A DNA stretch of 50,070 nt from Candidatus Saccharimonadia bacterium (GTDB taxonomy: Bacteria > Patescibacteriota > Saccharimonadia > UBA4664 > SCTI01). The notes under the pieces are model-generated. The model was not told the origin of the DNA. It saw only the letters and a program-made list of their open reading frames with translations, and ran no database searches. The stretch lies in NCBI GenBank assembly GCA_046597065.1, contig JBKJLI010000002.1, forward strand, positions 1 through 50,070, written 5' to 3'. Position 1 is the first letter of the stretch. Every line of letters starts with the position of its first letter. Shown here piece after piece: positions 12,747 through 35,393 of the stretch. Position numbers and translations under genes: made by a program.

Positions 12747-12774
12747 TTGACACCATTTTAGCCGGGAGTATCAT
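12747..12774 (+). promoter_or_regulatory. Sigma70-type promoter upstream of candidate ncRNA 1
   Basis: TTGACA-16 nt-TATCAT with AT-rich sequence upstream. Confidence 0.65.
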
Positions 12775-12780
12775 TGAGAT

Positions 12781-13162
12781 GTACGCAAGTATGAACACGC
12801 GACCCGGCAAAGGGGCAATGACATCATGATCCGAGGTACCGAGGCCTAGAAGGCCTGCCGCAAGCCGAAGTTCTTCCCTGGAGGGAAGTAGGTGAGTAAG
12901 GGCGGGTTCAAGCCCGTGGCGCTGGACCGTTAGAGCTGCCTCCCGTGGTAGTTCGTACGGGCTTGGCCCGTCTTTACCGCCGTTCGACGTTCGAGCACCA
13001 GTAAGTTCGTCTCGCAAGTTCAGCACCTCCTCACACCGGTTCCTGTCGGTCTTACCCGACACAGCACCCCCCGCTGGCAGTCTAAACTTGACTGCGGAAC
13101 CATCGATCACCGCCCTGGTGGATTAAGGCACGGATGCCTTGATTCACCGGGGTGATTTTTTT
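12781..13162 (+). ncRNA. Candidate large structured ncRNA of unknown class (ncRNA 1)
   Basis: Promoter, at least six local hairpins, long-range stem 12827-12841/13095-13109, terminator; G-U pairs favour the + strand; no credible ORF. Confidence 0.7.
13111..13162 (+). terminator. Intrinsic terminator
   Basis: 20-bp stem 13111-13130/13135-13154 with four G-U pairs, CGGA loop, then ATTTTTTT. Confidence 0.85.
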
Positions 13163-13225
13163 ATCAGCAAATATTAAGTCTAAGTCTGTATCATCAAGGA
13201 TGTCATAACCAAATAGGAGGTATCT

Positions 13226-20039: not shown

Positions 20040-20116
20040 GGGCCATTAGCTCAGTTGGTTAGAGCAGGGGACTCTTAATCCCCGTGTCCTGGGTTCGAAT
20101 CCCAGATGGCCCTCCA
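20040..20116 (+). tRNA. tRNA-Lys(CTT)
   Basis: GGGGA-CTCTTAA-TCCCC arm; GGGCCAT/ATGGCCC; TCCA. Confidence 0.95.
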
Positions 20117-20190
20117 GCAATTATTTATTCACCTAAGCCCGAAAATCTATAATATAATTGAAGGTACAAATGTTATAGAAAGGCACTGAT

Positions 20191-20523
20191 ATGAGCAAGT
20201 TTATTTTGCTATACAACGGACCAGCAACACCCCCAGACATGATGGATGATGCTAAGAGAAATCAGATTATGGGTGATTGGAAAACATGGATGGAAAAGGT
20301 TGGGCCTGCAATGGTAGAAATGGGTTCACCGATGGGCAATGGTCGGTCCGTAGTAGATGATGGATCAACCGGTAAGCCATTAGAAATAAGTGGTTATTCA
20401 ATAGTACAAGCTGAAGATATTAATGCGGCATTAGATTTAGTCGATGGCCATCCGTTTTTGAGTGACAAAAGCGGAAAATTTAGCGTAGAAGTATTTGAGC
20501 TATTTCCACAACCGGGGATGTAG
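20191..20523 (+). CDS. YCII-related protein
   Basis: KFILLY, W..W, G.P, SGYSIVQA, HP motifs. Confidence 0.7.
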   Translation: MSKFILLYNGPATPPDMMDDAKRNQIMGDWKTWMEKVGPAMVEMGSPMGNGRSVVDDGSTGKPLEISGYSIVQAEDINAALDLVDGHPFLSDKSGKFSVEVFELFPQPGM

Positions 20524-20626
20524 TGTTGGTACCTAGATGGCTTGCGCTGACTATAAACTGTTGCACGGTATCGACCATAAATATCTCGCCACGATGATAA
20601 GAAGTGCTTAGAGGTCGCGATAATAT

Positions 20627-20839
20627 ATGAAATTCTTTCGCACAACTAAATTTATTCATTTACCAATCTCTATGGCTGGATATTTGATATGGTTTATCGG
20701 ACTAGCTTTTCTAATAACTGTGTTCATTTCTATTGATAAAGGTTCTCATTCTGTGAGTGACACAATATACGGAATATTCCCATTTTTTGCATCTGTGTTT
20801 TTACTGATTGAATGGTTTACATCTAAAACTAGTGATTGA
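20627..20839 (+). CDS. Small two-TM hypothetical protein
   Basis: 70-aa ORF with two hydrophobic segments; SHSVSDT motif. Confidence 0.7.
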   Translation: MKFFRTTKFIHLPISMAGYLIWFIGLAFLITVFISIDKGSHSVSDTIYGIFPFFASVFLLIEWFTSKTSD

Positions 20840-20859
20840 ATTTTTGGTATATTAAACTT

Positions 20860-21123
20860 ATGAATTACACAATTATCGATGTTCGCGAACCAGATGAGTA
20901 TGCTAATGGTCACGTAAAAAATGCAATAAATCTACCTCTTGGACGAGTAATGCGCGGCGCAAGTGAGTTAAGTGGTACGCCAAAAACTACCAACGTAATC
21001 GTTTACTGCAAGAGTGGTGGTCGAGCAGCTGTAGCCGAAAATGCCTTGAAACAGCAAGGTTTTACTAATGTTACAAATAGTATTAACCAGGAACAAGTTG
21101 AAGCCCAGACGGCCCTCCAATAA
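20860..21123 (+). CDS. Rhodanese-like domain protein
   Basis: IIDVREPDEY..GHVKNAINLP, YCKSGGRA. Confidence 0.9.
   Translation: MNYTIIDVREPDEYANGHVKNAINLPLGRVMRGASELSGTPKTTNVIVYCKSGGRAAVAENALKQQGFTNVTNSINQEQVEAQTALQ
21100..21119 (+). repeat. Degenerate copy of the tRNA-Lys 3' end (att-like direct repeat)
   Basis: GAAGCCCAGACGGCCCTCCA vs GAATCCCAGATGGCCCTCCA at 20097-20116: 18/20 identical. Confidence 0.75.
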
Positions 21124-21218
21124 TTGACATTGAAATATAGCTTAGTTAGCGGCCGCACACTTGTTTTGGCAATTATACAGTGGCTCAGTTTTGGTGGCCT
21201 TTTTGTTATACTTACTAG

Positions 21219-21569
21219 GTGAAAAACAAAACTAAGCTAATCAGCATTATCCTGGTACTCGGTGTATCGATATTTATTGGCATTGGCTTCTTCTTGAACA
21301 GTAATTCAGGCAAGGAAACAAAAGTAAAAATTATTGATTACGGGTTTAGTATATGTACGCAAGATATCGCAGCAAGCGATTGTGGGCCGTATAAGGTAAC
21401 AGTGCAGAGCACAGGTAGTAAGAATACTGTTTATCAAGCGGCTGGGTATAGTAATCAAGAAAGCAAACAATATGATGAGATTAGAGCGAAGATAATTAAA
21501 GCAAAAGAGCAGAATGCTGAAGTAATTATCAAAGTTAATAAGCAGGGTGAAATAGTTTCAGTTAGATAA
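21219..21569 (+). CDS. Anchored/secreted hypothetical protein
   Basis: N-terminal hydrophobic helix, Cys pair; TATACT 6 nt before GTG. Confidence 0.7.
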   Translation: MKNKTKLISIILVLGVSIFIGIGFFLNSNSGKETKVKIIDYGFSICTQDIAASDCGPYKVTVQSTGSKNTVYQAAGYSNQESKQYDEIRAKIIKAKEQNAEVIIKVNKQGEIVSVR

Positions 21570-21696
21570 GTTATATTTCTGCAATATAGCTACAATGGCC
21601 TACATGATAGTCGCCCCCATTGCACTAATATATCCAGAGGTCTTAAGCCTCTGTTTTTAATAAAAGATATACTACAATTAGGCAAAAGAGGTTTAT

Positions 21697-22113
21697 ATGA
21701 TTAATAATCGTTTTTTTGAATCAGTTAGCACAAAAGCGTTGCTATCAACTATCTGGATTTTCGCATCGCTAAACTACATTTATTGCGATCTTATAGGGTT
21801 AATGGATAGCGTACTACTAAAGCAGTACCTGCAGGGTACGGTTAATGGCATACCAATAACTCAGGAACTACTCATTAGTGCTGCCGTCTTAGTGGAAATA
21901 CCAATGGCCATGGTATTACTTTCTCGAATACTCAGATATCGAGCGAACCGCTGGGCCAACATAGTTGCTGGATCAATAATGACCATAGTACAAATTGCAA
22001 CTTTATTTAAGGGTACGCCGACAAATTATTATTTATTTTGCAGTGTGGTTGAAATTGCAGCTACGGCTTTTGTAGTTTGGATTGCCTGGAACTGGAAATC
22101 CACGGAAGCTTAA
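21697..22113 (+). CDS. Four-TM membrane protein, DUF6326-like
   Basis: LSTIWIF..LNYIYCD, EIPMAMVLLS, NRWANI, YY.F...VE, AW.W. Confidence 0.7.
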   Translation: MINNRFFESVSTKALLSTIWIFASLNYIYCDLIGLMDSVLLKQYLQGTVNGIPITQELLISAAVLVEIPMAMVLLSRILRYRANRWANIVAGSIMTIVQIATLFKGTPTNYYLFCSVVEIAATAFVVWIAWNWKSTEA

Positions 22114-22191
22114 TCGATTTAGGATTATAGGCAATGATGCTTAAAGCGAATGTTTTAGTAGTGTGGGCCAAATAGGAATACAATGCATCTT

Positions 22192-22833
22192 ATGAATAGT
22201 AGCCCCAAACCCAAACATCGTTTTCGAAAAAGGTGGCTCTTTTTATTGTTATTAATTCCGCTTATTCCGTTATATTTTCTGGTAAGACCTGACACATATC
22301 TGCCCCATAACCATGTTGTTCTAACAGTACCCTTTGATATAAACCACCCTCCCGACTCTATGATTCCAATGGGTGAAACAATCCATCATCCTAAATCAGA
22401 ATCACCGCATGGACATCCTGGTATAGATTTTGGATGGTCCCATGGCGATGGCACAGTAAGCTCTGCGTCAGACGGAAAGGTTTTGTCTATCACGGATGGA
22501 GGTAGTGAAAAAGGCTTATGGGACGTCACTATAGCTTCGGGTGCTTATGAATTACGGTACAAAGAATTAAAAAGCTACGATCAAAAACTACATAAAGGCT
22601 CAGTAATTAAAAAAGGTGAGCCAATTGGCGTACCCGGTACTTTGGCGGGTGGATTTCATTGGGAATTAGCGTCACCAAGTGTACTGCAGGATCGTTTTTG
22701 TCCATTAAAATATTTTGATAATTCTGCCAAAATGATGATCGAATCAATTTGGTTAAAAGTTCCAAGTGATGACAAAATAAAAAGTCAATTTCCGGACATT
22801 TGTAGTGGGGATTACAAAAATAAAACCGATTAA
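22192..22833 (+). CDS. M23 peptidase-like anchored protein
   Basis: GHPGIDF, ASDGKV, G..IKKGEPIG, FHWEL; the HxH motif is incomplete. Confidence 0.65.
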   Translation: MNSSPKPKHRFRKRWLFLLLLIPLIPLYFLVRPDTYLPHNHVVLTVPFDINHPPDSMIPMGETIHHPKSESPHGHPGIDFGWSHGDGTVSSASDGKVLSITDGGSEKGLWDVTIASGAYELRYKELKSYDQKLHKGSVIKKGEPIGVPGTLAGGFHWELASPSVLQDRFCPLKYFDNSAKMMIESIWLKVPSDDKIKSQFPDICSGDYKNKTD

Positions 22834-22842
22834 CTAATATAC

Positions 22843-22871
22843 TTGCAGATCGGCATAATTAAGCGTAATAT
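22843..22871 (+). promoter_or_regulatory. Sigma70-type promoter upstream of candidate ncRNA 2
   Basis: TTGCAG-17 nt-TAATAT, ending just where the GC-rich folded block starts. Confidence 0.55.
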
Positions 22872-22877
22872 TCTCTG

Positions 22878-23307
22878 CGTCGGCACCTGGCCGCGCAGTG
22901 CATTCATGTGGTCTGCACCGCGCGAAGGGAGCCGCTGAACCAAGGTAATCGATGTTTTCTGGCTAGGCTGTTCGTGTAAGCCCAATAGAAGCTGCGAACG
23001 GCTTCAACCAATTCGCTCAGCGCCGGAGGGGTGTAGGGGCGAAAAGGTTGTGTGATCGGTGCACAGACCGATTGCAGTAAGAAAGATCCCTGCTATTTGT
23101 CACTCTCGTCGGTGACTTCTACCAGGGTCCAGACCCATCGAAGGCGCGTGTCTCACACCGCCGCACCACTCCCCCCGCCGTGCGGGCAACTAGCTCGCAG
23201 GGAGTGATTTTTAGCCACCGGCCCCGGTCCCTGAGACCGGTGACAGCTAAAGATCTTGGTTCACTTAGGGGACCGTTCCGGTTGTGATGAGCGCCGGAAC
23301 GGTCCCC
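22878..23307 (+). ncRNA. Candidate large structured ncRNA of unknown class (ncRNA 2)
   Basis: 5' hairpin, 11-bp long-range stem 22936-22946/23253-23263, many internal hairpins with + strand G-U pairs, 14-bp terminal hairpin. Confidence 0.72.
23268..23307. terminator. Perfect 14-bp GC hairpin (3' end of ncRNA 2 and/or terminator of the convergent operon)
   Basis: GGGGACCGTTCCGG-N12-CCGGAACGGTCCCC; no clear U tract. Confidence 0.6.
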
Positions 23308-23327
23308 GACCATTTGGAATTATTTTG

Positions 23328-23735
23328 CTATAGCCAGCTAAAGAGACTACGGAAAAAACCGGTAATGGAGTTAACAATGTATGTTATCGTTGGCTGTTGG
23401 CGCTTATATACCTCTCCGGGATGCGAGAAATCAAGTTTGGGCTTCAGTGAAGCATACTGGCTACGAATCGAATCGGTATAGGGCAGCTCTTCACCGTCTG
23501 CCGTTAATAATAAGACACTGGGCCTAACCTCATCCTTGGTGTTTGAAAGTATTCGTTGAATTTTCAAATCATGATCAACAATAATGTATCGAGCTGGCGA
23601 AACACTGGCAACAACCGAAATATTACCCCCACTAGTGCTGGCCTCTTCGCCAGCGACCACCACAAAGCTGGCCAAAAGCGTGCTTAAGACCAGAATTGCC
23701 GCCGCTCTAATACCGGTGATTAGGTAGCGTCTCAC
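23328..23735 (-). CDS. Secreted hypothetical protein
   Basis: Signal-like N-terminus; 4-nt overlap with the upstream ORF. Confidence 0.7.
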   Translation of the reverse strand: MRRYLITGIRAAAILVLSTLLASFVVVAGEEASTSGGNISVVASVSPARYIIVDHDLKIQRILSNTKDEVRPSVLLLTADGEELPYTDSIRSQYASLKPKLDFSHPGEVYKRQQPTITYIVNSITGFFRSLFSWL

Positions 23736-24169
23736 AGTAACAACCTAGTATACACGAGATAACCGTACTTTTGGGCGGGGTTGATTATTATTGGGATTAC
23801 TAGAAAAAGATGACCGTCAATAAACTGGCGATATGGCTGCATATCCAGTAGGTTTGATTTTAGGCTGGTTGGAATCACACTGGCATTGGTCTGCTGATAA
23901 AACACGGTTAACTGGGGCCGAGGTAGTCCATCTTTACTCGAGTAAGTGATGCTTGATCCTTCAAACTTTTGTAGAAAATATCCGCTCCCAAGCAGTTTGC
24001 TCGCAAGCTCGGCGTCGGGGCTAGATACAGCTGAGATTACCACGGGGTTACTAACCACCTTTTGGTACTGTTTGCTTGTATGTGACTGTAGCCAGCTTAT
24101 GCCGTTAAAACTTATCCCAAGTACTACCCCCAAAAGGACAAGTGATTTATTTAGGTTGAGTTTGTTCAC
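23732..24169 (-). CDS. Anchored hypothetical protein, possibly a single PDC/Cache-like domain
   Basis: N-terminal TM; C-terminal LFLVIPI...YGYLVY strand pair. Confidence 0.6.
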   Translation of the reverse strand: MNKLNLNKSLVLLGVVLGISFNGISWLQSHTSKQYQKVVSNPVVISAVSSPDAELASKLLGSGYFLQKFEGSSITYSSKDGLPRPQLTVFYQQTNASVIPTSLKSNLLDMQPYRQFIDGHLFLVIPIIINPAQKYGYLVYTRLLL

Positions 24170-25169
24170 GCCGGATCACCAATGCGATTATCAGTACTAC
24201 GACTATATAAATACAAATAGATCTAATAACGTGGTAGCTATAAACGTGATTAAAGACTTGTTTTTGGATATTTATTTGGTGCTCATAAGTAGATTGGGGG
24301 TAAAAGCTAATCACGGCGACAGAACCAAAATCTGAAACATTTATGGTACTGCCTTCAGTAAACGCTTTGATCCCACGATAATTAATTTCTTGATCCCTAA
24401 TACTTTGGTTACCAGATTTTAGGGTGTCAAAAACATGGCTCTGCCCCTTCAAATTAGTACTGTCATTAATCGCCATACCATTTTCTAAAAGCAGGTTACC
24501 TTCCCAATCAACGAGCGCCGATTGAAAGTTTGTTAACGAGGAGCCAAGGATAGTTCGTTTTGCTAAACCTTCCATTGTCATAGTCCCGGCTATAATTCCT
24601 ATAAAACGGTTGCTAGAGTCAATCACAGGTGCTGTAAATGTAATGACTGAGCGTCCGCTTTTAGCAGTTATCTTTGAGCCAAGTGTAGGTTTATGATTTT
24701 CTAAAACGTACTTAATATTTAAGTAAGAAGTGTAATCAGTGCCTAAATATTTTTCTGGGTTGGGAAGGTCGGTAGCTAACGATCTAAGTATGCCGTTTGA
24801 ATCAAGGACGCTGAGGCTGTTAAAATTTTGATTGATGTTACGCTGAACCGCCAAATTAGGAGTTAGACTGGCATAATTGCCACTATTAATCCGATTTATA
24901 ACACCGGGTTCTTTAGCTAATTTGCTAATGACGCTTGCAGCATTATTTAAAGCAACTTCGGTGAGCCGGACTGTGCCTCGGTGGAAAACGTCCAGCTGAG
25001 TCAAGCTGGATTGTTCAATTTGCTTGGTAGTGGACAGCTCTAACTCACCACTCATATTATGGTAACTCCAAATGCTACTTATTAGAGTTGCCAAAAAACC
25101 CATAACAATAATTGTGTAAAGGACGCTGTGCGTACGTATATGCTTTTTAGCGCGAACGCGTTTCGCCAT
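24147..25169 (-). CDS. TM-Cache-TM sensor-like protein with no cytoplasmic output domain
   Basis: LSVLDSNG, GTDYT, SGRSVITFTAPVID..FIGIIAG, LVDWEG; ends about 8 aa after TM2. Confidence 0.75.
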   Translation of the reverse strand: MAKRVRAKKHIRTHSVLYTIIVMGFLATLISSIWSYHNMSGELELSTTKQIEQSSLTQLDVFHRGTVRLTEVALNNAASVISKLAKEPGVINRINSGNYASLTPNLAVQRNINQNFNSLSVLDSNGILRSLATDLPNPEKYLGTDYTSYLNIKYVLENHKPTLGSKITAKSGRSVITFTAPVIDSSNRFIGIIAGTMTMEGLAKRTILGSSLTNFQSALVDWEGNLLLENGMAINDSTNLKGQSHVFDTLKSGNQSIRDQEINYRGIKAFTEGSTINVSDFGSVAVISFYPQSTYEHQINIQKQVFNHVYSYHVIRSICIYIVVVLIIALVIRREQTQPK

Positions 25170-25213
25170 CTATGATTCCGCTTATGCTAATAATAATACT
25201 ATAGAATAGGTCA

Positions 25214-25777
25214 ATGAGATCATTTATGGGGCGGTTGCCAACAAAAAATATAATTGTCGCAACGGCATTATTAGTTCTAGGATTAGTATTTTTACTAATT
25301 TGGCTCAGTCAACCATCCATGGGACACATAAAATATGTCACTTCACTTAAAGCTGATTCGGCGCCAAAGCCGGAGCAGACAAAGGTTAGTGGAGTAAGTG
25401 CAAACTTTCAAATCCCGGCTGGATACCAAGTGAACAGTTTGCCGAAAAATCCTTCAAATCCTGAAAGTTATCGCTACGTCGAAAAAAAACCGGGCGGCGC
25501 CTTGCTTACTATCGGCATAAAGCCATGGGATAAAGCCATAACCGAAGATTCCGCAGTTAGATATAGGCAGATAAACCCTGATACCTACTTAAAATCCACC
25601 CTGACGCTGGATGGAGGCGAGGCCATTAAGTACAGCTTAAAGGCAGAGACATTCGAAGAGGTAGTGCTATCGACGAATAGTGGTAGATTGGCAACTATTG
25701 CACTTTCGGGCGGTGGGGATGGGCAGGAGTACGCCAAGCAGTTAGGGGATTTAGTTTCAAGTTGGCATTGGAAATAA
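25214..25777 (+). CDS. Anchored hypothetical protein, possibly PsbP/Mog1-like
   Basis: N-terminal TM, FQIPAGY, TLDGGEA, C-terminal LVSSWHWK; fold is a guess. Confidence 0.65.
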   Translation: MRSFMGRLPTKNIIVATALLVLGLVFLLIWLSQPSMGHIKYVTSLKADSAPKPEQTKVSGVSANFQIPAGYQVNSLPKNPSNPESYRYVEKKPGGALLTIGIKPWDKAITEDSAVRYRQINPDTYLKSTLTLDGGEAIKYSLKAETFEEVVLSTNSGRLATIALSGGGDGQEYAKQLGDLVSSWHWK

Positions 25778-25818
25778 GCTAGTCTAGTCCCCTGCCCTAC
25801 CCTATAATAAGCATAACC

Positions 25819-26877
25819 ATGTTGGAGATTTTAAAACAGATTGTAGCTGGCGCCTTAAGTGTGGTCGCCTTAGCGGTGCTTCCTGGCACAACAAATTATC
25901 AGCTTAACAGCTATGGGTTTGGCTCGGGAGGAGTTGCAAACTCATCGACTCCAAACTATGCACTTGAAGGTATCAGTGGTGAGGTTGGGTCAAGCGCCAA
26001 CAGTACAACCACCTATACTCAGAACAATGGTACGGTTGCAACTCAGCAGGCCAACGTGCCAACGGCGCCAACCTTTGACAACCCCAGCAACTACTACAAC
26101 AAGCTGAGATTAATAATTAATACCGCAAGCAACCCCAGTGACGCCAAGTTTGCGGTGGCAATAAGTAGCGACAACTTTGTGACCACTCAGTATGTTCAGA
26201 ATGATGCCACCGTTGGTAGCGCCTTGGGCACCGAAGACTATCTAACCTACGCCGGCTGGGGCAGCGGTACCGGGACATTGGTAATTGGCTTAATTTCAAA
26301 TACGACCTATAAAGTAAAGGTTAAGGCGACCCAGGGTAAATTCACTGAATCGGCATATGGGCCCACTGCATCAGCTGCCACTGTTTCAAGCTCACTCACA
26401 TTTGCCTTAAGTACGACCAGCCAGCCATCGCCACCATTTAGCATAAACATTGGCAGCCTGTTACCGGCTACGGTCACAACCGCCAGCGACAACATAATTA
26501 TTGATATTACCGCTAACGGCGAAACCGGAAGCAACGTTTATGTGCGCTCGCAGAATGGGGGCTTAAGCAGTACAGCGGGAGCTTATACAATCGTTTCGGC
26601 TTCGGCTGACCTAGCATCAGCCAACGAGGGCTTCGGCCTACAGTCTGCCTCGGTTAGCCAAACCAGCGGCGGTCCACTGGTAGCTTTGTCGCCCTACAAT
26701 CTAGCATCAGGTAATGTGGGGCTGCTAGATAGCAGTTTAAGGGCACTGTTTAGTGCATCTAGCGCAATAGTAGGTGGGCATGGAACGGCCGCCCTTAAAG
26801 CTAAGGCCAGCTCTAGTACGCCAAGTGCCAACGACTATTCTGATATTTTAACCATAGTTGCCGCAGCTAACTACTAA
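25819..26877 (+). CDS. Secreted beta-rich surface protein (WxL/pilin-like C-terminus), paralog 1
   Basis: Signal peptide, S/T/G-rich; ends STPSANDYSDILTIVAAANY. Confidence 0.7.
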   Translation: MLEILKQIVAGALSVVALAVLPGTTNYQLNSYGFGSGGVANSSTPNYALEGISGEVGSSANSTTTYTQNNGTVATQQANVPTAPTFDNPSNYYNKLRLIINTASNPSDAKFAVAISSDNFVTTQYVQNDATVGSALGTEDYLTYAGWGSGTGTLVIGLISNTTYKVKVKATQGKFTESAYGPTASAATVSSSLTFALSTTSQPSPPFSINIGSLLPATVTTASDNIIIDITANGETGSNVYVRSQNGGLSSTAGAYTIVSASADLASANEGFGLQSASVSQTSGGPLVALSPYNLASGNVGLLDSSLRALFSASSAIVGGHGTAALKAKASSSTPSANDYSDILTIVAAANY

Positions 26878-26972
26878 CTAACTTCTTTAAAAAATCAAAA
26901 ATAGGCTTGCATTGTCTAGGTAATATGCTTATGCTTATGAAAAGCACCTAATCTAAAGAGATTTACCCCAAA

Positions 26973-28028
26973 ATGCAAAAACACAAAAGCTTCAAAAAAT
27001 TAAGTTCGATTGTAGCCGCCTTTGCAATACTGGGTGCGGTTATTTTGCCGTTCGCAACACCAGCTAGCGCGGCATCGTTAAGTAACACCTATATAAGACT
27101 TGACCGTATCGCGGCTTCAACCGCAACTTCGGTTAGGGTCGTCTTTAAGACATCAGCCGTTAACGGTACCGAAGCCAAGGTGGTTGTCGACTTTGACACC
27201 GGTTCCAGTTTTACAGTTAATACGACACAAACCATAACAACCGCCGCATGTGCTTCTGAAACCGGCTTTACCGCGCTGCCGACCGGTACAACACTTGCTG
27301 CCACAGGCGATAACTCTGCCAAGTCAGTAACAGTTACAGCGGTATCTGACCTAGCGGTTAGCACCACCTACTGCTTTGACCTCACCAGCACAACTGCTGT
27401 TACAACTCCAACTGCCGGTATTTATACGGGAAATGTAGCGACCCAGACTGCGGGTAGTGCTGCCATCGATAACATTGATGTCGCCGAGCGAATTATTGCT
27501 AACGATCAAATTGTGGTAAATGCCAGCGTACCACCATCATTCACCTTTGCTCTAAGTGGAAACACCGATACCATTCCAGCCATTAACTCCGGCACAATAT
27601 CTTCATCGACCGGACGTACTGTAACTATTACTACAAACGCCAGTAAGGGTTGGATCGCATGGGTCAGAAGCCTAAACGGTGGCTTAACCTCGGCCTCTGC
27701 ATCAAAAACCATCCTTACAACTCAAGTAGGTTCGGCAGCCCACACCTTAAGTGCAAGTGCGGAAGACTATGCTCTCGATGTAGACTTAACTACCGACGCA
27801 GCCGGTGGCGGAACAGTTACCATCGACTCCTTCTACAATGGTGCATCTACTTCTGCAGGTGGAGGCATTGATAACACCAAGCTTCGTCCGATTGCTAGTA
27901 GCAATGGGACAGCCGGTGGATCAGGCGACGTGCTGACCTTGATTGAACGAGCCTCCGCAGCCGTCGACACCCCAGCTGCAAACGACTATACCGATACCCT
28001 CACAGTTATCGGAGCCGGTAGCTACTAA
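26973..28028 (+). CDS. Secreted beta-rich surface protein (WxL/pilin-like C-terminus), paralog 2
   Basis: ASA signal; V.ASVPPSFTFAL, TTNASKGW; ends DTPAANDYTDTLTVIGAGSY. Confidence 0.7.
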   Translation: MQKHKSFKKLSSIVAAFAILGAVILPFATPASAASLSNTYIRLDRIAASTATSVRVVFKTSAVNGTEAKVVVDFDTGSSFTVNTTQTITTAACASETGFTALPTGTTLAATGDNSAKSVTVTAVSDLAVSTTYCFDLTSTTAVTTPTAGIYTGNVATQTAGSAAIDNIDVAERIIANDQIVVNASVPPSFTFALSGNTDTIPAINSGTISSSTGRTVTITTNASKGWIAWVRSLNGGLTSASASKTILTTQVGSAAHTLSASAEDYALDVDLTTDAAGGGTVTIDSFYNGASTSAGGGIDNTKLRPIASSNGTAGGSGDVLTLIERASAAVDTPAANDYTDTLTVIGAGSY

Positions 28029-28047
28029 CTCAGTTCGAAGCCCACAA

Positions 28048-28079
28048 CTAAAAAGACGGTCATGCGACCGTCTTTTTAG
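28048..28079. terminator. Bidirectional intrinsic terminator
   Basis: CTAAAAAGACGGTC-ATGC-GACCGTCTTTTTAG. Confidence 0.85.
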
Positions 28080-28126
28080 TTTAAGAAGTAGTCGAAAATG
28101 AATACGCTTATGTATAATAGATTCAG

Positions 28127-29182
28127 ATGGTTAAGAGGATTTATGGCGCCAGCGTTGCGCTAGTTTTACTGTTAGGCTGCCTTGTTGCGGCGGTCGCTTT
28201 AAGTGGAAACGCCCATGCAGCCAATGGGGCCTTAAGTCTTACAACCTCACCGCTGCCTGTAAACCTGGTAGTTGCACCAGGAAATACGGCATCGACGGAT
28301 CTTAGAATAAAGAATAGCGGTGTCAAGACTGAACTAATTAAGATCAAGCTGATGAAGTTTGAGGCCTTTGGTGAAGACGGTAAACCTAAAATAGAGGATC
28401 GCGGCCCAGGAGACGACTACTTTGACTGGGTGAGATTCTCTGAATCCACTTTTACTCTTGAACCGAACATTTGGAAGACCATAAAAATGAACATTGCTGT
28501 GCCTAAGTCAGCGGCATTTGGGTATTACTACGCGGTGAGTTTTGAAAGAGCAACCGAAGGAGTTACAAGCAAGGATCGCCAAACGACGCTGCAAGGCGCT
28601 CCAGCCACGCTTGTCCTACTTGAAGCCAGAGTGCCGGGTGCCAAGCGCCAGCTAGATGTGGTGGAGTTTAGTACCGATCACAAGTTGTATGAGTTTTTGC
28701 CCACCACCTTTCGTATAAAGCTGCGAAATAAGGGCAATGTGCATGTTGCGCCATCTGGCAGCATATTCATTTCAAAAAATAAATCAAAATCCGATGGAAT
28801 CGTATCGATAAACCAAGAACGAGGCAACATATTACCCGCTTCTAACCGGCAGTTTAGCGCCAAGTGGGCCGATGGCACGCCGGTTTATCAGTTTAAAGAA
28901 AGTAATGGTGAGGTTGTTCTTGATAGTCGCGGGAAGTCAAAAAGTGTTCTAAATTGGGACGGTCTATCGCTGAATAAGCTGCGCTTCGGCCACTACACTG
29001 CAACATTAACCATGGCCTACAACGATGGTACTAGAGATGTACCGGTAGAAGCCGAGGTCGGCTTTTGGGTCATACCCTGGCGAATTATTTTTGGAGTAAT
29101 TCTTTTAATCGTTATACCTTCAACACTAGCTTACTGGATAGCAAAATGGCGCCTTAAGCGCTCATCGGGGAAACGAAAATGA
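28127..29182 (+). CDS. DUF916/DUF3324-like Ig-fold protein with C-terminal TM anchor, paralog A
   Basis: SP..NL...PG..L.IKNSG, F.VP..A..G.YY, LRNKGNVHVAP.G, ILP, GHYTATL, FWVIPW, TM plus basic tail. Confidence 0.7.
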   Translation: MVKRIYGASVALVLLLGCLVAAVALSGNAHAANGALSLTTSPLPVNLVVAPGNTASTDLRIKNSGVKTELIKIKLMKFEAFGEDGKPKIEDRGPGDDYFDWVRFSESTFTLEPNIWKTIKMNIAVPKSAAFGYYYAVSFERATEGVTSKDRQTTLQGAPATLVLLEARVPGAKRQLDVVEFSTDHKLYEFLPTTFRIKLRNKGNVHVAPSGSIFISKNKSKSDGIVSINQERGNILPASNRQFSAKWADGTPVYQFKESNGEVVLDSRGKSKSVLNWDGLSLNKLRFGHYTATLTMAYNDGTRDVPVEAEVGFWVIPWRIIFGVILLIVIPSTLAYWIAKWRLKRSSGKRK

Positions 29183-30219
29183 GAAAGTTGCTAAAAAGTT
29201 TTATCTCTCTAATAATCGTTCTGTTTATTTCCATAGTGCCCGGCAATTCTCATGCGGCCAATGGCGCCTTAAGTTTGACCACATCACCTTTGCCGATAAG
29301 CTTGGTCGCAACTCCTGGGAGCTCAACCACCACCGATCTGCGCATTAAAAATAGTGGTACCCAAAATGAGAGAATCACCATAAAGTTAATGAAGTTTGAG
29401 GCCTTTGGTGAAGACGGTAAACCTAAAATAGAGGATCGTGGCCCAGGTGATAGTTACTTTGACTGGGTGAAGTTTTCGGAACCTACATTCACGCTTGAAC
29501 CGAACGTTTGGAAGACCATAAAAATGACCATTAACCTGCCTAAAAGCGCGGCATTTGGGTACTACTACGCGGTCAGTTTTGTGCGATCAAATGAGGGTGT
29601 ATCGAGCCAGCCACGTCAAACGACGCTGCAGGGTGCTCCTGCTACTTTAGTTTTGCTTGAAGCCCGTGTGCCGGGTGCCAAGCGAAAACTTAATGTGGTG
29701 GAGTTTAGCACCGACCACAAGCTGTATGAGTTTTTGCCCACCACCTTTCGCATAAAGTTGCGTAACGAAGGTAACGTTCATGTTGCGCCGGCAGGTAGCA
29801 TTTTTATTGGTCGTAGTTCTAGGCAGCAGACCGGTTTAGTTTCGATAAACCAAGATAGGGGTAGTATTTTACCCGCTTCTAACCGGCAGTTTAGCGCCAA
29901 GTGGGCCGATGGATTTCCGGTATATAAATTAAAAGAAAATAATGGTGAGGTAGAGCTAGATAGCCATGGCAAGCAGAAGCAGTCGCTGGTATGGGACCTA
30001 ACCCAAGCCAATAAGCTACGCTTCGGCCACTACACTGCAACATTAACCATGGCCTACAACGATGGTACCAGAGATGTACCAGTAGAAGCCGAGGTCGGCT
30101 TTTGGGTCATACCCTGGCGAATTATCGCGGGCGTATTGTTAGTACTTGCACTTGTAGGACTGGGATTAAGATCTAGCATTCGTAATTTGTGGCGCCGGAT
30201 TCGCCGCAAGAGGACCTAG
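29179..30219 (+). CDS. DUF916/DUF3324-like protein, paralog B
   Basis: Close paralog of 28127-29182; ATGA overlap. Confidence 0.7.
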   Translation: MRKLLKSFISLIIVLFISIVPGNSHAANGALSLTTSPLPISLVATPGSSTTTDLRIKNSGTQNERITIKLMKFEAFGEDGKPKIEDRGPGDSYFDWVKFSEPTFTLEPNVWKTIKMTINLPKSAAFGYYYAVSFVRSNEGVSSQPRQTTLQGAPATLVLLEARVPGAKRKLNVVEFSTDHKLYEFLPTTFRIKLRNEGNVHVAPAGSIFIGRSSRQQTGLVSINQDRGSILPASNRQFSAKWADGFPVYKLKENNGEVELDSHGKQKQSLVWDLTQANKLRFGHYTATLTMAYNDGTRDVPVEAEVGFWVIPWRIIAGVLLVLALVGLGLRSSIRNLWRRIRRKRT

Positions 30220-30224
30220 AGCTC

Positions 30225-31352
30225 ATGGTTATAAAATGGAGTGCGCTTTTTTTTGGCGCGGCCCTTGTTATAGTGGCGCCATCGGTCTTAAAAGCAGCCA
30301 GTGGCGACGAGCTTAATATTGCCCCAGCACTGCAAGAGGTGATTGTTACTGGCACCGACATAACCAAGCCGGTAACTGTTACAGTTGCGAACAGCGGTCC
30401 TAGTAGTCGTACCTACAAGTTGAGCGTGGTCGATTTTGGGAGTTTAGGGGAAAGTGGGGGTCTGGCTTTCTTGGGTCAGACTGCAAATGAGAGCGAGCAT
30501 CGATTTGGCTTGTCGCCGTGGGTACAAGCTCCCGCCACCGTAAATGTTGCCGCTCGCAGTAGCAGTGACGTAGTGATTACGATTGAAAATCGCACTACAC
30601 TTTCGCCCGGTGGCCACTATGCGGCGGTTATTGTTACTCCAGTGGATCAGGCCTCAAAGCCGAAACAAGTACAACTTCAGCAGCAGCTCGCCTCTTTGAT
30701 ACTTTTAAGGAAAACTGGTGGGGAGCAGTATCGTTTTGGTGTAAGCGGCCAATCATTTAACAGCAACTGGCTGAAGCTACCAGGCTCGATAAATTTAAGA
30801 GTGGCTAACAGCGGCAATGTCCATGTAGTGCCAAGAGGACTGATACGGCTGGTTGATCCAAGAGGGGAGGTTGTATATCGGGCGACGATTAATCAGGGTT
30901 CAAGCTTTATCTTACCCGGGAGCGTTCGCAACTTTAACGTCACTTTAATGAAGCAGAAAAACGCCCTGTGGCCGGGGAAGTACTTACTGCTAACGCAGAC
31001 ACGCAATGACGGCAGTGATAGCGTTCAAACCATCAAAAAAGAGATTTGGTATCTGGGCTACATTGGCGTGATTGCGATAGTCGCGTTAGTGGGGCTAGCT
31101 CTGCTTGCAATAGTGGCAATCTGGTTGATCCGAAAGCGGAAACCACGGCCAAAGATACCTCCAAAAACTTTTAATAAAAATGTCACCGAGAAGGTAGAAG
31201 AGGAATTGCCTCCAGAAGTCCCCGATACTGTAGTTACACAAAAACCGGTTGTTAAAAAGCCCTCCCCAATGCGAAAACAAAAGGTTTTTAAGCCTACCGA
31301 TGGAATGCGCCGGACAACTAAAAAAAGCGCCTCTGAGAAGCCAAAAAAGTAG
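30225..31352 (+). CDS. DUF916/DUF3324-like protein, divergent paralog C, with long K/P-rich tail
   Basis: PGGHYAAV, ANSGNVHVVPRG, ILPGSVR, WPGKY, TM helix. Confidence 0.7.
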   Translation: MVIKWSALFFGAALVIVAPSVLKAASGDELNIAPALQEVIVTGTDITKPVTVTVANSGPSSRTYKLSVVDFGSLGESGGLAFLGQTANESEHRFGLSPWVQAPATVNVAARSSSDVVITIENRTTLSPGGHYAAVIVTPVDQASKPKQVQLQQQLASLILLRKTGGEQYRFGVSGQSFNSNWLKLPGSINLRVANSGNVHVVPRGLIRLVDPRGEVVYRATINQGSSFILPGSVRNFNVTLMKQKNALWPGKYLLLTQTRNDGSDSVQTIKKEIWYLGYIGVIAIVALVGLALLAIVAIWLIRKRKPRPKIPPKTFNKNVTEKVEEELPPEVPDTVVTQKPVVKKPSPMRKQKVFKPTDGMRRTTKKSASEKPKK

Positions 31353-31469
31353 CTAAAAAAAGTTTCAAAAAATAAAATTTTTACAAACCTGGTTTACAGG
31401 TTGCGTTAATGCTTATGCTTTGATAAAATTCAGACATAGCAAATTTAGCCGCATTTAAAGCGACAAAAG

Positions 31470-34400
31470 GTGTTGTGGAGAAATATACAAAAAGTGAGAA
31501 TCAAAATAAAGATTCCAAATCTAAAACAGCCAAAACCGCTGACCTTAGTATCGATACTGGTGCTTGGCTTTTTGGCGTCGATTGCACTTATTTCATTACC
31601 GGCAAAGGCTGCCACCGGGATCAACAAACAGATCAACTTTCAGGGTAAAGTCGTTAATGCCAACGGTACCAACGTGACCGATGGTGCCTACAACTTCGAC
31701 TTCAAAATTTATACGGTTGCCAGTGGTGGAGCGGCAATTTGGAGCGAGCTGTCAAAATCAACCACGGTTACTAGCGGTGTATTCCAGACCAGCTTGGGCT
31801 CGGCTACTACCCTTCCAGGTTCGATCGACTTTAATACCGACAACATTTATTTAGGAATAACTTTTAATGGTGACGCTGCCGGTGAAATGACTCCGCGCGT
31901 GCAGTTTAGTGCCGTACCGCAGGCCTTTAACTCCGAGAAAGTGGGCGGAATTTTGGCATCCGGTCTGGTACAACTTACTCCCAGCGGTCAGCAAACTGGA
32001 ACGATTAATATTAGTGGCTCACTAACCTCGGCCAGTACGTTGCAGGGTACCAGTGCTACTCTGACTGGCGGTAACTCATTGACGCTGGGTACCGCTAGTT
32101 CATTAACTGGTGCCATAATTTTAAACAACGCTACTAATACCAACACCGTTACGCTGCAAAGCGGGGTGTCGGGTAGCTCTTATACGCTGACAATGCCGAC
32201 CACCGCTCCCAGCGTGAGCCAGTGTTTGCAGAGCGATAGCGTGACGGCTAGTCAGCTTAAGTTTGGTAGTTGCGCCGGCGGTTCTACGACACTTCAAAAC
32301 GCCTATGACGCCGCTAGTGGTAATATTATTACCACAAGTAACGCCAAGGATGTAACATTTACGCTGGCCGACACCGCGACCGATAGTAACTTTATTGTAA
32401 ATGTGGCCACCGGCTCGACCAGTAAGTTTGCCATCCAGCAGAACGGATCGGACGTTTTGAGCGTGAGCGCTACCGGCGCGGTATTAAGCAAAAACTCAGC
32501 CAACTCCGCAACCGCGTTCCAGATTCAAAACAGCAGCGGCGCCAACGTGGCGCGCGTTGATACCAGTGGTGCCAATGCCAACAACTTGGTGACAAACCCA
32601 AGCTTTGAAAACAACTCCACAACCGGCTGGACCGGCAACGGTGGCTGTACTTTAACGGCGGTTACAAGTGCCACTACCGGCCCGTTTAATGGTCAGTACA
32701 GCGGCCAGTGTAGCAACACTGCAACTATAGGTGCCGAGTATCGGTTTGTAACCGGCGCGTTGACTGCTAGTACCGCTTATACCTTTAACTTTTATGCGAA
32801 GGCATCGGCTACTTCTGGTGCTTTCCTAAGTTTTGGGCACGTTGAGAACGGCGGAGCCGAGGATGTTGCTGGACTATCATTAACAACTCAAGCTGTCAGC
32901 ACCAGTGGCTGGACTCGTTACTCGTTGAGCTTTAAAACTGGTGCTACTTTGGCGTCTGGCGATTATCTCTACGTTAAGCAGACCGACGCAACCGCTCGCA
33001 GCGTCTGGCTAGATGGGGCCACTCTACAGACCGATGCTAACGGTGATGGTAACTATCGCGAAGGTAAGATTGCCCTGGGTGGCATCATTACCAGCCCAAC
33101 ACTTTTACAAAACGAGAGCAACTCAACTACTGCATTTCAGGTGCAAAATGCCGCCGGTGCAAGTGTGTTTACGATTGATACTACCGATAGCAACCTGCTG
33201 CCCAACCCAGGTGCTGAGGTAAGTGCGGCGGGTTGGTCGGCCAAGGGCAGCGGCACTATTATTCGCGATAGCTCTCAGCAAAAGTTTGGCATTGCAGCCT
33301 TTAAGGTGGTTACCACGGCTACGGCTAACGATGGCGCCCAGTACGCCGGCTTAAACCTGGCGATTGGAACCTACTCGATTGGCGTATCAATAAAAAACAA
33401 TGCCACCGCTTTTGGCGCGGGTGCCTTGCAAGTTGGTATTACCAACACCGGTGGTGACAATGTGTGTACACTTGCGCCTGCAGTGAGTGCAACTATTCCT
33501 ACAAGTACCGGTTGGACACGATTTACCTGTTCGGTAACTATTGCCACAACGGTTGGTACAGCCTTTTATGTTAAGCAAACCGAGGCAGTAGCGCACACAA
33601 TTTGGGTTGATGGCATAGAGCTGGACTCTGGAGCAACCTTGACTCCCTATGGGGTTGGCTCGCTGTCATTTAATGCGGTAATTAAAACACCGTTAACTCT
33701 TCTAAACCAGTCGGATTCGACCAGTGCACTGGCGGTCTATAACGCGGCCGGCCTACAGTTACTTGGCGTCGATACCTTGAATGCAGGAGTTAACATTGCG
33801 ACTGGCGCGGTAGCCGGTACTGTAACCATCGGCAATACTACTGGTGCCTCGGCGGTGACAATCCAGGGTGGAACTGGCGCTATTAATATTGGTACACAGG
33901 CAATTGCGGATACCATTACGATTGGAAACTCCACTGGCGCCACCTCGGTGGTGATTAACAACGGCACGGGCGCGCTAAACCTTGGTACCAACGCTATCGC
34001 TCACACCGTCACCATCGGCAACACTACCGGCGCATCGGCTTTAACCTTACAGGCTGGAACCGGTAACGTTTCGATAACCGGAGCAGCCGCTACAACCTTT
34101 ACCATCGGGCCAGCTGCCGGTACCGGAGCCATTACCGTCGGACCATCAACCGCTTCGCAGACTATCAACATTGGCAATACGGCTAAAGGTGCAGGTAGCG
34201 CAAATACAATTAACATCGGCGCTACAAATAACGCCTCTACTGGTACTACCGCGATTGCGATAGGTAGCAGCAACACTAGTACAGGTGTTACCACCGTAAC
34301 CATAAAGGCCGGTACCACCGCTACTTCGGCCGGCCCCTCAGTAACTTTGGGTGCAACCGCTAGTACCACCGCGGTTTGTTCAAGCTTGGCTGCGGCCACC

Positions 34401-35369
34401 GCCCCAACGGCTGGTACCGCCTATGAGCTGCGCGACTGTAGCGGTACCCCAGCGGCCGACTTTGCCGAAAACTATCCGGTTGCAAGCGGAGTCGAGTATG
34501 GCGACGTTGTGGCAATTGGCACAAAAATGATCAACACCTACGATGTTACCAACGGCAACATCGATTGGACCAAGATTAAGGGTAGAATCACTCAGTTGGT
34601 AAAAAGCAGCCAGGGCTATCAGTCGGGTGCACTGGGAATTGTTTCAGAAAACCAGAGCGATTTTACAACTGCTGGTTATAACATTAAGTCTGGTGACAAC
34701 CCCAAGACGGTGGCACTTGTAGGGCGCGTACCGGTTAAGGTCACCACCGAAAATGGCGCAATTGAACCCGGAGACTTTTTGGCGAGTTCTGATACGCGAC
34801 CTGGCTACGCCATGAAGGCAACCGGAGCCGGTTACATTATTGGCCAGGCGCTTGAAGCATTTACCGACGCCAAACCCGGAAAAGTAATGGTGTTTGCTCG
34901 TTCTGGCTATAGTCCTGGGCCAAATCCGAGCCAGAATCTTCAGCATGGAAGTTTTGGCGATCTAATATCTAAGGGTACTTTGACGGCCAGCAACATCAAG
35001 GTAAGCGGCCTGCTTGAGGTTCAAGACATTGTGGTAAATGGCCACTTTATTACAGCCGGCGGACAGCCAACCGCTTTGTTGCTTGGTTCTGCCGGTGTTG
35101 GCGCAAACATATCAATTAGTGGCACAGATACCATCGGCACCATTAGTATTACTACCGGAACCAAGACTACGCCTGGCGAGCTTGCAAAGATCGTGTTTAG
35201 TAAAAGCTATACTCAGCCGCCAAAGGTGCTATTAAGCCCGTCTAACGAGGCCGCATCAAAAGCTCAGTTTTATCGCGGCACAACTGGAAAGGCCGATTTT
35301 ACCCTCAACCTATCTTCGCAGGCAAGCGCCAAAACTAACTATAAGTTCGATTACTTTATCGGGCAGTAA
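31470..35369 (+). CDS. Large secreted tail-fibre-like adhesin
   Basis: Signal (AKA/A); INFQGK..EMTPR..VPQA domain; two CBM4/9-like modules (NLVTNPSFE, NLLPNPGAE); IG.TTGA repeats; peptidase-G2-like ADFAE..GRVPVKV..PG.AMKA..IIGQALE. Start uncertain. Confidence 0.75.
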   Translation: MLWRNIQKVRIKIKIPNLKQPKPLTLVSILVLGFLASIALISLPAKAATGINKQINFQGKVVNANGTNVTDGAYNFDFKIYTVASGGAAIWSELSKSTTVTSGVFQTSLGSATTLPGSIDFNTDNIYLGITFNGDAAGEMTPRVQFSAVPQAFNSEKVGGILASGLVQLTPSGQQTGTINISGSLTSASTLQGTSATLTGGNSLTLGTASSLTGAIILNNATNTNTVTLQSGVSGSSYTLTMPTTAPSVSQCLQSDSVTASQLKFGSCAGGSTTLQNAYDAASGNIITTSNAKDVTFTLADTATDSNFIVNVATGSTSKFAIQQNGSDVLSVSATGAVLSKNSANSATAFQIQNSSGANVARVDTSGANANNLVTNPSFENNSTTGWTGNGGCTLTAVTSATTGPFNGQYSGQCSNTATIGAEYRFVTGALTASTAYTFNFYAKASATSGAFLSFGHVENGGAEDVAGLSLTTQAVSTSGWTRYSLSFKTGATLASGDYLYVKQTDATARSVWLDGATLQTDANGDGNYREGKIALGGIITSPTLLQNESNSTTAFQVQNAAGASVFTIDTTDSNLLPNPGAEVSAAGWSAKGSGTIIRDSSQQKFGIAAFKVVTTATANDGAQYAGLNLAIGTYSIGVSIKNNATAFGAGALQVGITNTGGDNVCTLAPAVSATIPTSTGWTRFTCSVTIATTVGTAFYVKQTEAVAHTIWVDGIELDSGATLTPYGVGSLSFNAVIKTPLTLLNQSDSTSALAVYNAAGLQLLGVDTLNAGVNIATGAVAGTVTIGNTTGASAVTIQGGTGAINIGTQAIADTITIGNSTGATSVVINNGTGALNLGTNAIAHTVTIGNTTGASALTLQAGTGNVSITGAAATTFTIGPAAGTGAITVGPSTASQTINIGNTAKGAGSANTINIGATNNASTGTTAIAIGSSNTSTGVTTVTIKAGTTATSAGPSVTLGATASTTAVCSSLAAATAPTAGTAYELRDCSGTPAADFAENYPVASGVEYGDVVAIGTKMINTYDVTNGNIDWTKIKGRITQLVKSSQGYQSGALGIVSENQSDFTTAGYNIKSGDNPKTVALVGRVPVKVTTENGAIEPGDFLASSDTRPGYAMKATGAGYIIGQALEAFTDAKPGKVMVFARSGYSPGPNPSQNLQHGSFGDLISKGTLTASNIKVSGLLEVQDIVVNGHFITAGGQPTALLLGSAGVGANISISGTDTIGTISITTGTKTTPGELAKIVFSKSYTQPPKVLLSPSNEAASKAQFYRGTTGKADFTLNLSSQASAKTNYKFDYFIGQ

Positions 35370-35393
35370 TATTTAGATAGCCGAAACGGTGGG

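Follow-up and report, generated by a model that had tools for sequence, protein, structure and literature searches.

OLE, ROOL, GOLLD, raiA and HEARO are stand-alone non-coding RNAs of several hundred nucleotides with many helices, and the candidate element described here is like them in each of these respects. Variable or prophage regions close to tRNA genes are a frequent location of ROOL and GOLLD. For ROOL, GOLLD and OLE, RNA-only assemblies have recently been shown (PMC12286853). Three further papers describe the GC-IGR pipeline, which exploits long intergenic regions whose GC content is well above that of their surroundings (PMC6429828, PMC8632094, PMC11109978); the searched passages of PMC11109978 contain no mention of CPR or Patescibacteria genomes. 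Our literature search, which was limited in coverage, found no description of such an RNA in CPR bacteria. We analysed a 50,070-nt window from a Candidatus Saccharimonadia bacterium, in which an earlier note made from the letters alone had pointed to a stand-alone, highly structured + strand RNA of ~430 nt that is not a 5' leader. This reading was supported by the thermodynamics of the segment, by one contig from an RNA library and by a few polymorphisms, and the segment probably does represent a genuine structured RNA that stands alone and is specific to its lineage.

The element lies in a stretch of 494 nt (22834-23327) that holds no ORF of 80 aa or more and is among the longest ORF-free gaps of contig 1. 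The GC content of this stretch is 0.56 overall and 0.60-0.62 in its core; the three genomic contigs lie at 0.478-0.495, and the 5 kb around the element at 0.33-0.44. With 716,426 bases in 3 contigs at 97% completeness, the 716-kb genome is of the CPR type. The short ORFs within the element (51-65 aa) gave no Pfam match better than E 0.16, and no repeat arrays were found within it. A BLAST search of the genome with the 441-nt element returned the self-match only, which makes the element single-copy. Two other blocks of the window are also GC-rich (42653-43078 and 44942-45406, GC 0.60-0.63), and these correspond to foreign-looking ORFs. The next ORF (23328-23735) was found on the - strand, convergent with the + strand element, as had been claimed; because of this orientation the element is not a 5' leader, and the same-strand gene directly downstream that would mark a riboswitch or another cis-regulatory leader is absent.

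The fold and the partition function were computed with RNAfold for positions 22870-23310 (441 nt). One dominant fold emerged, with 68% of the bases engaged in 151 pairs and with pairing probabilities that exceed 0.9 for nearly all helices. Fifteen of these pairs are G-U, each of which becomes a C-A mismatch on the opposite strand, and the count supports the remark in the earlier note that the wobbles favour the + strand. From 5' to 3' the predicted fold comprises a hairpin, a core closed by the long-range stem P1 and a further perfect hairpin (Table 1). P1 encloses ~305 nt, within which the central domain is closed by the stacked helices 22949-22954/23136-23141 and 22958-22962/23129-23133. The junction between arms C and D is the longest single-stranded segment of the RNA core.

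Table 1. Predicted features of the element and natural variants at paired positions (P, pairing probability)
Feature	Position	Strand	Remarks
AT-rich spacer with two overlapping promoter-like hexamer pairs	22830..22871	+	follows the upstream stop codon
5' hairpin of four helix segments that stack, separated by small internal loops	22879..22935	+	segment P 0.77-0.99
Closing stem P1, 5' strand	22936..22946	+	pairs with 23253-23263; 9 pairs, P 0.97
Central multi-branch domain with four arms, closed by two helices that stack	22949..23141	+	main helices P 0.91-1.00
Arm A	22965-23004	+	central domain
Arm B	23005-23050	+	central domain; apical loop GGAGG
Arm C	23051-23076	+	central domain
Arm D	23088-23127	+	central domain; one 2-bp segment only P 0.54
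Purine-rich junction between arms C and D, 11 nt	23077..23087	+	unpaired probability >0.7
3' domain, three hairpins	23143..23254	+	P 0.85-0.99
Hairpin E	23143-23162	+	3' domain
Hairpin F	23167-23206	+	3' domain
Hairpin G	23207-23254	+	3' domain
Closing stem P1, 3' strand	23253..23263	+	pairs with 22936-22946
Perfect GC-rich hairpin, 15 bp (+2)	23268..23307	+	P 0.97
Variant	22949	+	transversion, opens terminal pair
Variant	22966	+	G-U to A-U, pair kept
Variant	22968	+	C-G to U-G, pair kept
Variant	23008	+	C-G to U-G, pair kept
Variant	23123	+	C-G to U-G, pair kept
Variant	23209	+	U-G to C-G, pair kept

All of the sequence features named in the earlier note were found where it had placed them, and most of them recur in the computed fold. 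This holds for the 5' hairpin (22881-22934), for the hairpins at 23051-23076, 23099-23116 and 23167-23206, and for the hairpin after the stem, which had been described as 14 bp long and was found at 23268-23307 with 15+2 pairs. The long-range stem had been drawn with 11 bp; it is present (P 0.97), but RNAfold uses 9 of the 11 pairs, and the two extra pairs of the longer version, a G-U and a U-A, compete with the helix 23207-23215/23246-23254. Three of the proposed local pairings exist in the sequence but give way to other helices. GAAGCTG/CGGCTTC (22988-23005) and GGGT/ACCC (23125-23136) are displaced in the minimum-energy fold by long-range helices of P>=0.95, namely 22965-22975/22994-23004 together with the two closing helices of the central domain, and CCCGC/GCGGG is displaced by the local helix 23181-23187/23193-23199 (P 0.99).

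The strength of this fold was compared with shuffled sequences, with known RNAs of the same genome and with random genomic windows. The + strand of 22870-23310 folds at -209.1 kcal/mol (z -6.69), and none of 100 dinucleotide shuffles was as good; the - strand reaches -194.9 kcal/mol (z -4.74), so that the + strand is better by 14 kcal/mol. With the same tool, the RNase P RNA (383 nt) and the tmRNA (379 nt) of the genome gave z-scores of -4.34 and -2.78, respectively, and by this measure the element folds more strongly than either. For the genomic background, the energies of 638 random 441-nt windows were regressed on GC content. The + strand lay 3.55 residual SD below expectation, as extreme as only 1 of the 638 windows, and the - strand lay at -2.37 SD. 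In raw energy, too, a single window of the 638 was as low as the + strand, and the 26 background windows with a GC content of at least 0.56 had residuals mostly near zero. These results show that the fold exceeds chance expectation.

Natural variants of the element were sought with a word index in five sequencing runs (X1-X5), three of which contain part of the stretch, and contigs were compared over 22100-24000. The first of the three (X1) is a soil DNA run that is possibly the source of the assembly and was not counted; the second (X2) is a soil DNA run from a different study and the third (X3) a metatranscriptome library. In the remaining two (X4 and X5) the words are almost entirely absent. 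From the metatranscriptome library came one 348-nt contig, which covers 22895-23242, lies wholly inside the element and has 12 differences (96.6% identity); the remainder of 22100-24000 is uncovered in this library, which counts neither for nor against. An RNA library thus contains a near relative of the element, where the contig gives no strand, ends or level and the library may carry DNA, and we take this one contig from one library as a hint of expression. The absence of both expression and covariation had been named in the earlier note as one outcome contrary to its claim; of the two, expression now has a hint, in this contig.

The second soil run gave four short contigs. One of them lies over the element (23059-23320) and has a single difference in 262 positions, compared with 18 of 218, 4 of 232 and 4 of 119 positions for those over neighbouring genes. 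Contig depths are low (3.6-6.1 in this run, and 3.9 and 5.2 for the variant-bearing contigs), and single differences may be errors. Ten differences are listed inside the element, nine from the metatranscriptome and one from the soil run, and none of them falls in the junction between arms C and D. Six lie in predicted helices, and five of the six keep the pair (Table 1). All five of these are transitions; since a random transition in these helices keeps the pair with a probability of 0.546, five of five corresponds to p ~0.05. When the same sites are read on the - strand, each of the five is mismatched, either in the reference (2) or in the variant (3). The within-species variants at the six helix sites form a weak but consistent hint of a + strand RNA structure under selection.

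These data bear on whether the segment is non-functional DNA, be it what is left of a GC-rich gene of foreign origin or other junk with a fortuitously good fold. The foreign-looking ORFs in the other GC-rich blocks of the window would fit such an origin, as would the lack of homologues to attest selection. The fold, however, is extreme both against dinucleotide shuffles of constant composition and against GC-adjusted genomic windows, and the short ORFs within the segment bear no trace of a protein family. Substitutions in helices keep their pairs, the soil contig over the element differs less than those over neighbouring genes (1/262 vs 18/218), and the element is present in an RNA library. 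We therefore regard non-functional DNA as quite unlikely.

Signals for transcription initiation and termination were examined around the element. The hexamers TTGCAG (22843-22848) and TAATAT (22866-22871), separated by a 17-nt spacer, had been pointed out in the earlier note. Both are present at these positions, but by our count they match the sigma-70 consensus at 3 of 6 and 4 of 6 bases, a weaker match than had been implied, and a promoter scan lists instead TTAACT-18-CATAAT at 22830-22859 (9/12). The scan of 22300-23800 gave 4 promoter-like sites against 2.2 +/- 1.5 in shuffles, which is no excess. Transcription is expected to start at ~22866-22880. At the other end, no intrinsic terminator was called by the scan in 22300-23800, because the 3' hairpin is not directly followed by a U-run; the hairpin itself is very strong, and the sequence beyond it is only loosely U-rich. 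This hairpin, with no U-run directly after it, is likely the 3' end of the RNA or a terminator.

The position of the element raises the question of whether it belongs to the upstream genes. It starts 46 nt past the stop codon of an M23-like gene, and six ORFs upstream of it are oriented as it is. The co-directional gene block upstream spans 20191-22833 (YCII-like, rhodanese, DUF6326 and M23-like). Its 3' hairpin ends 21 nt from the end of the convergent gene. The element could accordingly be a structured 3' region of the upstream block, serving as an mRNA-stabilising 3' UTR or as an insulator between convergent units. Its proximity and co-orientation to the upstream genes are compatible with this reading, as is the weak consensus match of its own promoter, and a hairpin so close to the convergent gene could terminate transcription in both directions. 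On the other side, seven internal hairpins, set in two multi-branch domains that a long-range stem closes, far exceed the needs of a terminator or stabiliser, and the contig from the RNA library lies entirely within the element (22895-23242). On balance a 3' region of the upstream block appears unlikely.

We then compared the window with known RNA families. A scan of the whole window with the 4227 families of Rfam 15 gave seven matches at the gathering score, all of them tRNAs, and the element matched none of these families at that score; the known-family match that the earlier note had named as a contrary outcome was thus not found. A permissive scan of 22700-23450 (E<=10) returned seven matches at noise level (14-18 bits), all to models of snoRNAs, miRNAs and sRNAs. 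At this threshold the element had no match to RNase P RNA, tmRNA, SRP RNA, 6S, OLE, ROOL, GOLLD, HEARO or raiA, and ARAGORN found no tmRNA in the window. The RNase P RNA of the genome lies elsewhere, on contig 2 at 212735-213117 (254.6 bits), as does its tmRNA at 226917-227295 of the same contig (107 bits). A 6S-like match (RF00013) was found on contig 2 at 210736-210894 with 44.4 bits, which is below the cut-off of 46.4; the multi-branched fold of the element is unlike the long irregular hairpin with a central bubble of 6S RNA.

No match to the SRP RNA models RF00169 and RF01854 was found anywhere in the genome at E<=1. The SRP proteins were not found either: PF02978 gave no match in the genome and PF00448 only a 19-bit P-loop match, while none of 30 sampled relatives had PF02978 and none of 60 sampled genomes of the phylum had PF00448. 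Loss of SRP has already been reported for Parcubacteria (PMC4508563). Because SRP proteins were not found, no SRP RNA is expected, and the idea that the element is a hidden SRP RNA was rejected. More generally, a very divergent form of a universal RNA (RNase P, tmRNA, SRP RNA or 6S) would agree with the size and structural richness of the element, which are comparable to those of RNase P RNA and tmRNA, and with the failure of both Rfam SRP models to find an SRP RNA in the genome. Against it, RNase P, tmRNA and 6S-like matches all lie at other sites of the genome, the element matches none of these families at E<=10, and no SRP RNA is expected where its proteins are missing. We consider a divergent universal RNA to be very improbable.

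Homologues of the element were searched for at the level of sequence and of structure. With the whole element as query, BLAST found no match in 60 relatives (including 9 of the family and 43 more of the order) or in 400 genomes sampled across the phylum, where the genomes sampled are a small part of the phylum and the searched collections may omit records very close to the genome of the window. As a positive control, the tmRNA of the genome matched 49 of the 60 relatives by the same BLAST, with full-length matches of 70-78% identity in 7 of the 9 family genomes; because this control works, a vertically inherited RNA of the size of the element would have been detected. Among 50,697 phage records BLAST gave only two 27-nt chance matches (E 0.4), and among 72,556 plasmid records it gave none.

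Covariance models built from the single sequence covered the central domain (22947-23143) and the 3' domain (23141-23256). The central-domain model was found in 0 of 150 relatives (one 24-nt match of 12.3 bits), in 0 of 9 family genomes at E<=10 and in 0 of 150 genomes of the phylum sample (one 26-nt match of 15.7 bits); with filters off, its best score over 63,299 bases, made up of the other orphan RNAs plus the syntenic stretches from three relatives, was 11.1 bits. The 3'-domain model was found in 0 of 150 relatives. Short words were searched as well. An 18-mer of the junction had 4 matches in metagenome contigs, none of which extended; the two that were inspected lay apparently in coding sequence. 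An 18-mer of loop A had 10 matches in genome contigs, again without extension. Four 16-18-mers gave 13, 0, 8 and 17 matches in viral contigs, which are chance or coding coincidences; 15 of the 17 come from one group of related phage contigs with a shared, apparently coding stretch and are not homologues. Its absence from every other genus searched means that the RNA performs no conserved housekeeping function, and the element could be young or in decay.

The genomic neighbourhood was compared with that of related genera. The element lies 2.7 kb downstream of a cluster of tRNA-Arg, tRNA-Arg and tRNA-Lys genes. Of three other genera examined, at least two retain the order alpha-amylase, tRNA-Arg(CCG), tRNA-Arg(TCG), tRNA-Lys(CTT), and in the third all four are present in a different gene order. 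The genes after tRNA-Lys vary between the genera, and among the ORFs of the window at 20.1-35.4 kb only a YCII-like one has a counterpart in the compared regions. No GC-rich, gene-free block comparable to the element was found after the tRNA cluster in the regions of the three relatives. A search of 52 other genomes of the order for the M23-like neighbour gave one distant homologue (36% identity), with no RNA beside it. The element thus sits in a hypervariable, low-GC stretch that follows a conserved tRNA cluster.

Such a setting invites the view that the element is the cargo or remnant of a mobile element or phage, for example an RNA of the guide, omega or retron type whose protein partner is gone, or an ornate RNA of the phage type. 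In keeping with this view, the tRNA cluster 2.7 kb upstream is conserved in the three other genera and the genes that follow it are not, the region has a GC content of 0.33-0.44 against 0.48-0.50 for the genome, the M23-like neighbour is rare in the order (1/52), and none of the other genera searched has the RNA. Positions 20201 and 23320 carry a 13-nt direct repeat, which is roughly the chance expectation. However, a Pfam search of 27 neighbouring ORFs found no integrase, transposase, recombinase, reverse transcriptase, nuclease or defence protein, and a PADLOC search of 12 neighbouring ORFs gave no match. With no partner domain in the 27 ORFs and no arrays in the element, nothing typical of retron, DRT, omega-RNA, bridge-RNA or CRISPR-type systems was found. 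A repeat of the 3' end of tRNA-Lys was not found downstream, the phage and plasmid searches yielded only the 27-nt chance matches, the four scans of viral contigs yielded chance or coding coincidences, and there was no match to the HEARO, GOLLD or ROOL models of Rfam. An origin as mobile cargo or remnant is rather unlikely in the light of these searches.

Taken together, the reading that we favour, with reasonable though by no means full confidence, is an independent, accessory, lineage-specific RNA gene on the + strand with a very stable, compact and multi-branched product. The gene would be non-coding and ~390-450 nt long. Its transcription would start in the AT-rich spacer behind the upstream gene and end at or just past the hairpin 23268-23307, and the transcript would adopt one dominant shape, in which a 5' hairpin, a P1-closed core with a four-armed and a three-hairpin domain, and a 3' hairpin follow one another. 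The gene would be accessory, lying in the hypervariable stretch and not being common to the other genera. We infer that the RNA would act in trans as a stable structural RNA, either as a protein-binding scaffold or decoy or as a self-assembling particle. A trans-acting structural RNA is most likely, ahead of a cis-regulator or a ribozyme of a known class, because the element lacks a downstream gene, an adjacent gene for a partner and a binding motif that recurs, and it bears no signature of a known ribozyme or riboswitch.

Further orphan structured RNAs were noted in this genome, one in the window at 12778-13170 and one on contig 2 at ~96740-97335, neither of which is in Rfam. The first of them was searched for in other genera and not found. 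Kinship between the element and this RNA was considered and rejected: the two share short motifs, but their alignment is no better than that of shuffles, which were as good in 119 of 300 cases by local score and in 38 of 200 by global score. It is conceivable, if improbable, that the element is one of a set of large, very stable, lineage-specific RNAs that would form a new, fast-turnover accessory class. Rather than degenerate known RNAs, the members of such a set might be self-assembling RNA particles or scaffolds that serve the epibiotic lifestyle or act against phages.

Reduced CPR genomes are thought to retain little beyond essentials. Here, ~0.2% of a reduced genome is apparently given to at least three long, exceptionally well-folded RNAs that are absent from databases, and searches for two of these orphan RNAs found neither of them in any sister genus. 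If these RNAs are real and expressed, they would indicate that large structured RNAs can arise or turn over quickly, and they would offer compact, highly stable natural folds for structural work. Since the element is an orphan, ordinary covariation-based discovery would never flag it, and it can serve to test how much comparative pipelines miss.

The RNAs named at the outset are among the known systems closest to the element. Its place in a variable region near tRNA genes resembles the setting of ROOL and GOLLD, and it shows exactly the signature on which the GC-IGR pipeline relies. At ~430 nt it is shorter than OLE, ROOL and GOLLD. The OLE, ROOL, GOLLD, raiA and HEARO families have hundreds to thousands of members with covariation, whereas the element has none outside near-identical strains, and the Rfam models of these families fail to match it, also at E<=10. 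Likewise, GC-IGR candidates are validated by comparing many representatives, and the element is without such representatives. The RNase P RNA and tmRNA of the same genome are like the element in size (383 and 379 nt), in being GC-enriched and in being structured. RNase P RNA and tmRNA are typically abundant in metatranscriptomes. In distribution they part ways, tmRNA being found by the same BLAST in 49 of the 60 relatives and the element in none, and in folding strength the element exceeds both. RNAs of the 6S, Ms1 and CsrB type are trans-acting, stable and abundant, with their own promoter and a hairpin end; a likeness of the element to them is a functional conjecture. In structure the element has neither the rod with a central bubble of 6S nor a repeated binding motif, and the genome has a separate 6S-like locus. 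The element is a singleton family; although a member of none of these families, it resembles the large non-coding RNAs of unknown function.

The predicted structured RNA at window positions 22843-23307 (+) is accompanied in the window by a second stand-alone candidate, presumably the "ncRNA 1" of the earlier note, and elsewhere in the same genome by a third ORF-poor, highly structured block. The second candidate has the promoter TTGACA-17-TATCAT (12748-12776), a GC-rich body measuring about 380 nt and, at 13111-13162, a 20-bp hairpin with seven consecutive U residues after it. Its folding gave a z-score of -5.49. A Rfam scan of this candidate returned nothing at E<=10, its similarity to the RNA at 22843-23307 was not significant, and BLAST found it in 0 of 60 relatives. 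The 126-aa ORF that overlaps it on the minus strand is spurious.

The third block, on contig 2 of the genome, displayed a z-score of -5.71, with none of 100 shuffles folding equally well, and it has a promoter-like TTGTCA-17-TTAAAT upstream and no Rfam match at E<=0.01. Another GC-rich block with a weaker score (z -2.81) was located just upstream on the same strand, at 1340-1800 of L088, the contig 2 region that holds the third block. We also compared folding energies, regressed on GC content, across a background of 638 random 441-nt windows of the genome. The most extreme of these windows came from the third block, and windows at contig 1 ~215189 (-) and contig 2 ~248103 (-) had residuals of -3.2 and -3.1 SD, respectively, both stronger than that of the RNase P window (-2.6 SD); neither of the two matched Rfam.

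Features of the window and of contig 2
Feature	Coordinates	Strand	Remarks
Second stand-alone structured RNA candidate	window 12748-13166	+	promoter, GC-rich body, hairpin and U-run
Third ORF-poor, highly structured block, ~596 nt	contig 2 ~96740-97335 (L088:540-1135)	-	folding
Three successive ORFs (351, 351, 346 aa)	window 26973-30219	+	near-equal lengths
Short GC-rich block, 141-aa ORF	window 42653-43078	-	GC 0.60-0.63 (both blocks)
Short GC-rich block, 154-aa ORF	window 44942-45406	-	GC 0.60-0.63 (both blocks)

Window positions 20100-35400 form a hypervariable stretch that begins after a conserved tRNA-Arg/Arg/Lys cluster, is low in GC over its first 5 kb, and has genes with nearly no same-place counterparts when compared with three further genera of its family. 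The plus-strand gene block whose last member is the RNA at 22843-23307 is flanked by a 13-nt direct repeat (20201 and 23320), which is close to chance expectation. The three successive ORFs, which may represent a paralogous set of surface proteins, matched no Pfam family, except that the third showed weak Fn3-like similarity; downstream of them lie a 387-aa ORF and then a protein of 1299 aa that carries a carbohydrate-binding domain. The 141-aa and 154-aa ORFs look like recently acquired foreign genes, their blocks having a GC content well over the genome value and AT-rich DNA on the flanks.

Among known RNAs, a 6S RNA match at contig 2 210736-210894 (+), which precedes the RNase P RNA gene by about 1.8 kb, scored just under the Rfam cut-off (44.4 vs 46.4 bits). 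Both signal recognition particle (SRP) RNA models were without a match in the genome, and the Ffh M domain (PF02978) was detected neither there nor in any of 30 sampled relatives. The SRP54-type GTPase domain common to Ffh and FtsY (PF00448) was found in 0 of 60 genomes of the phylum at E<=1e-10, and all 14 control genomes were positive. FtsY seems to be missing, along with SRP, from this genome and the sampled relatives. The failure to find SRP here is consistent with a published report on Parcubacteria (PMC4508563).
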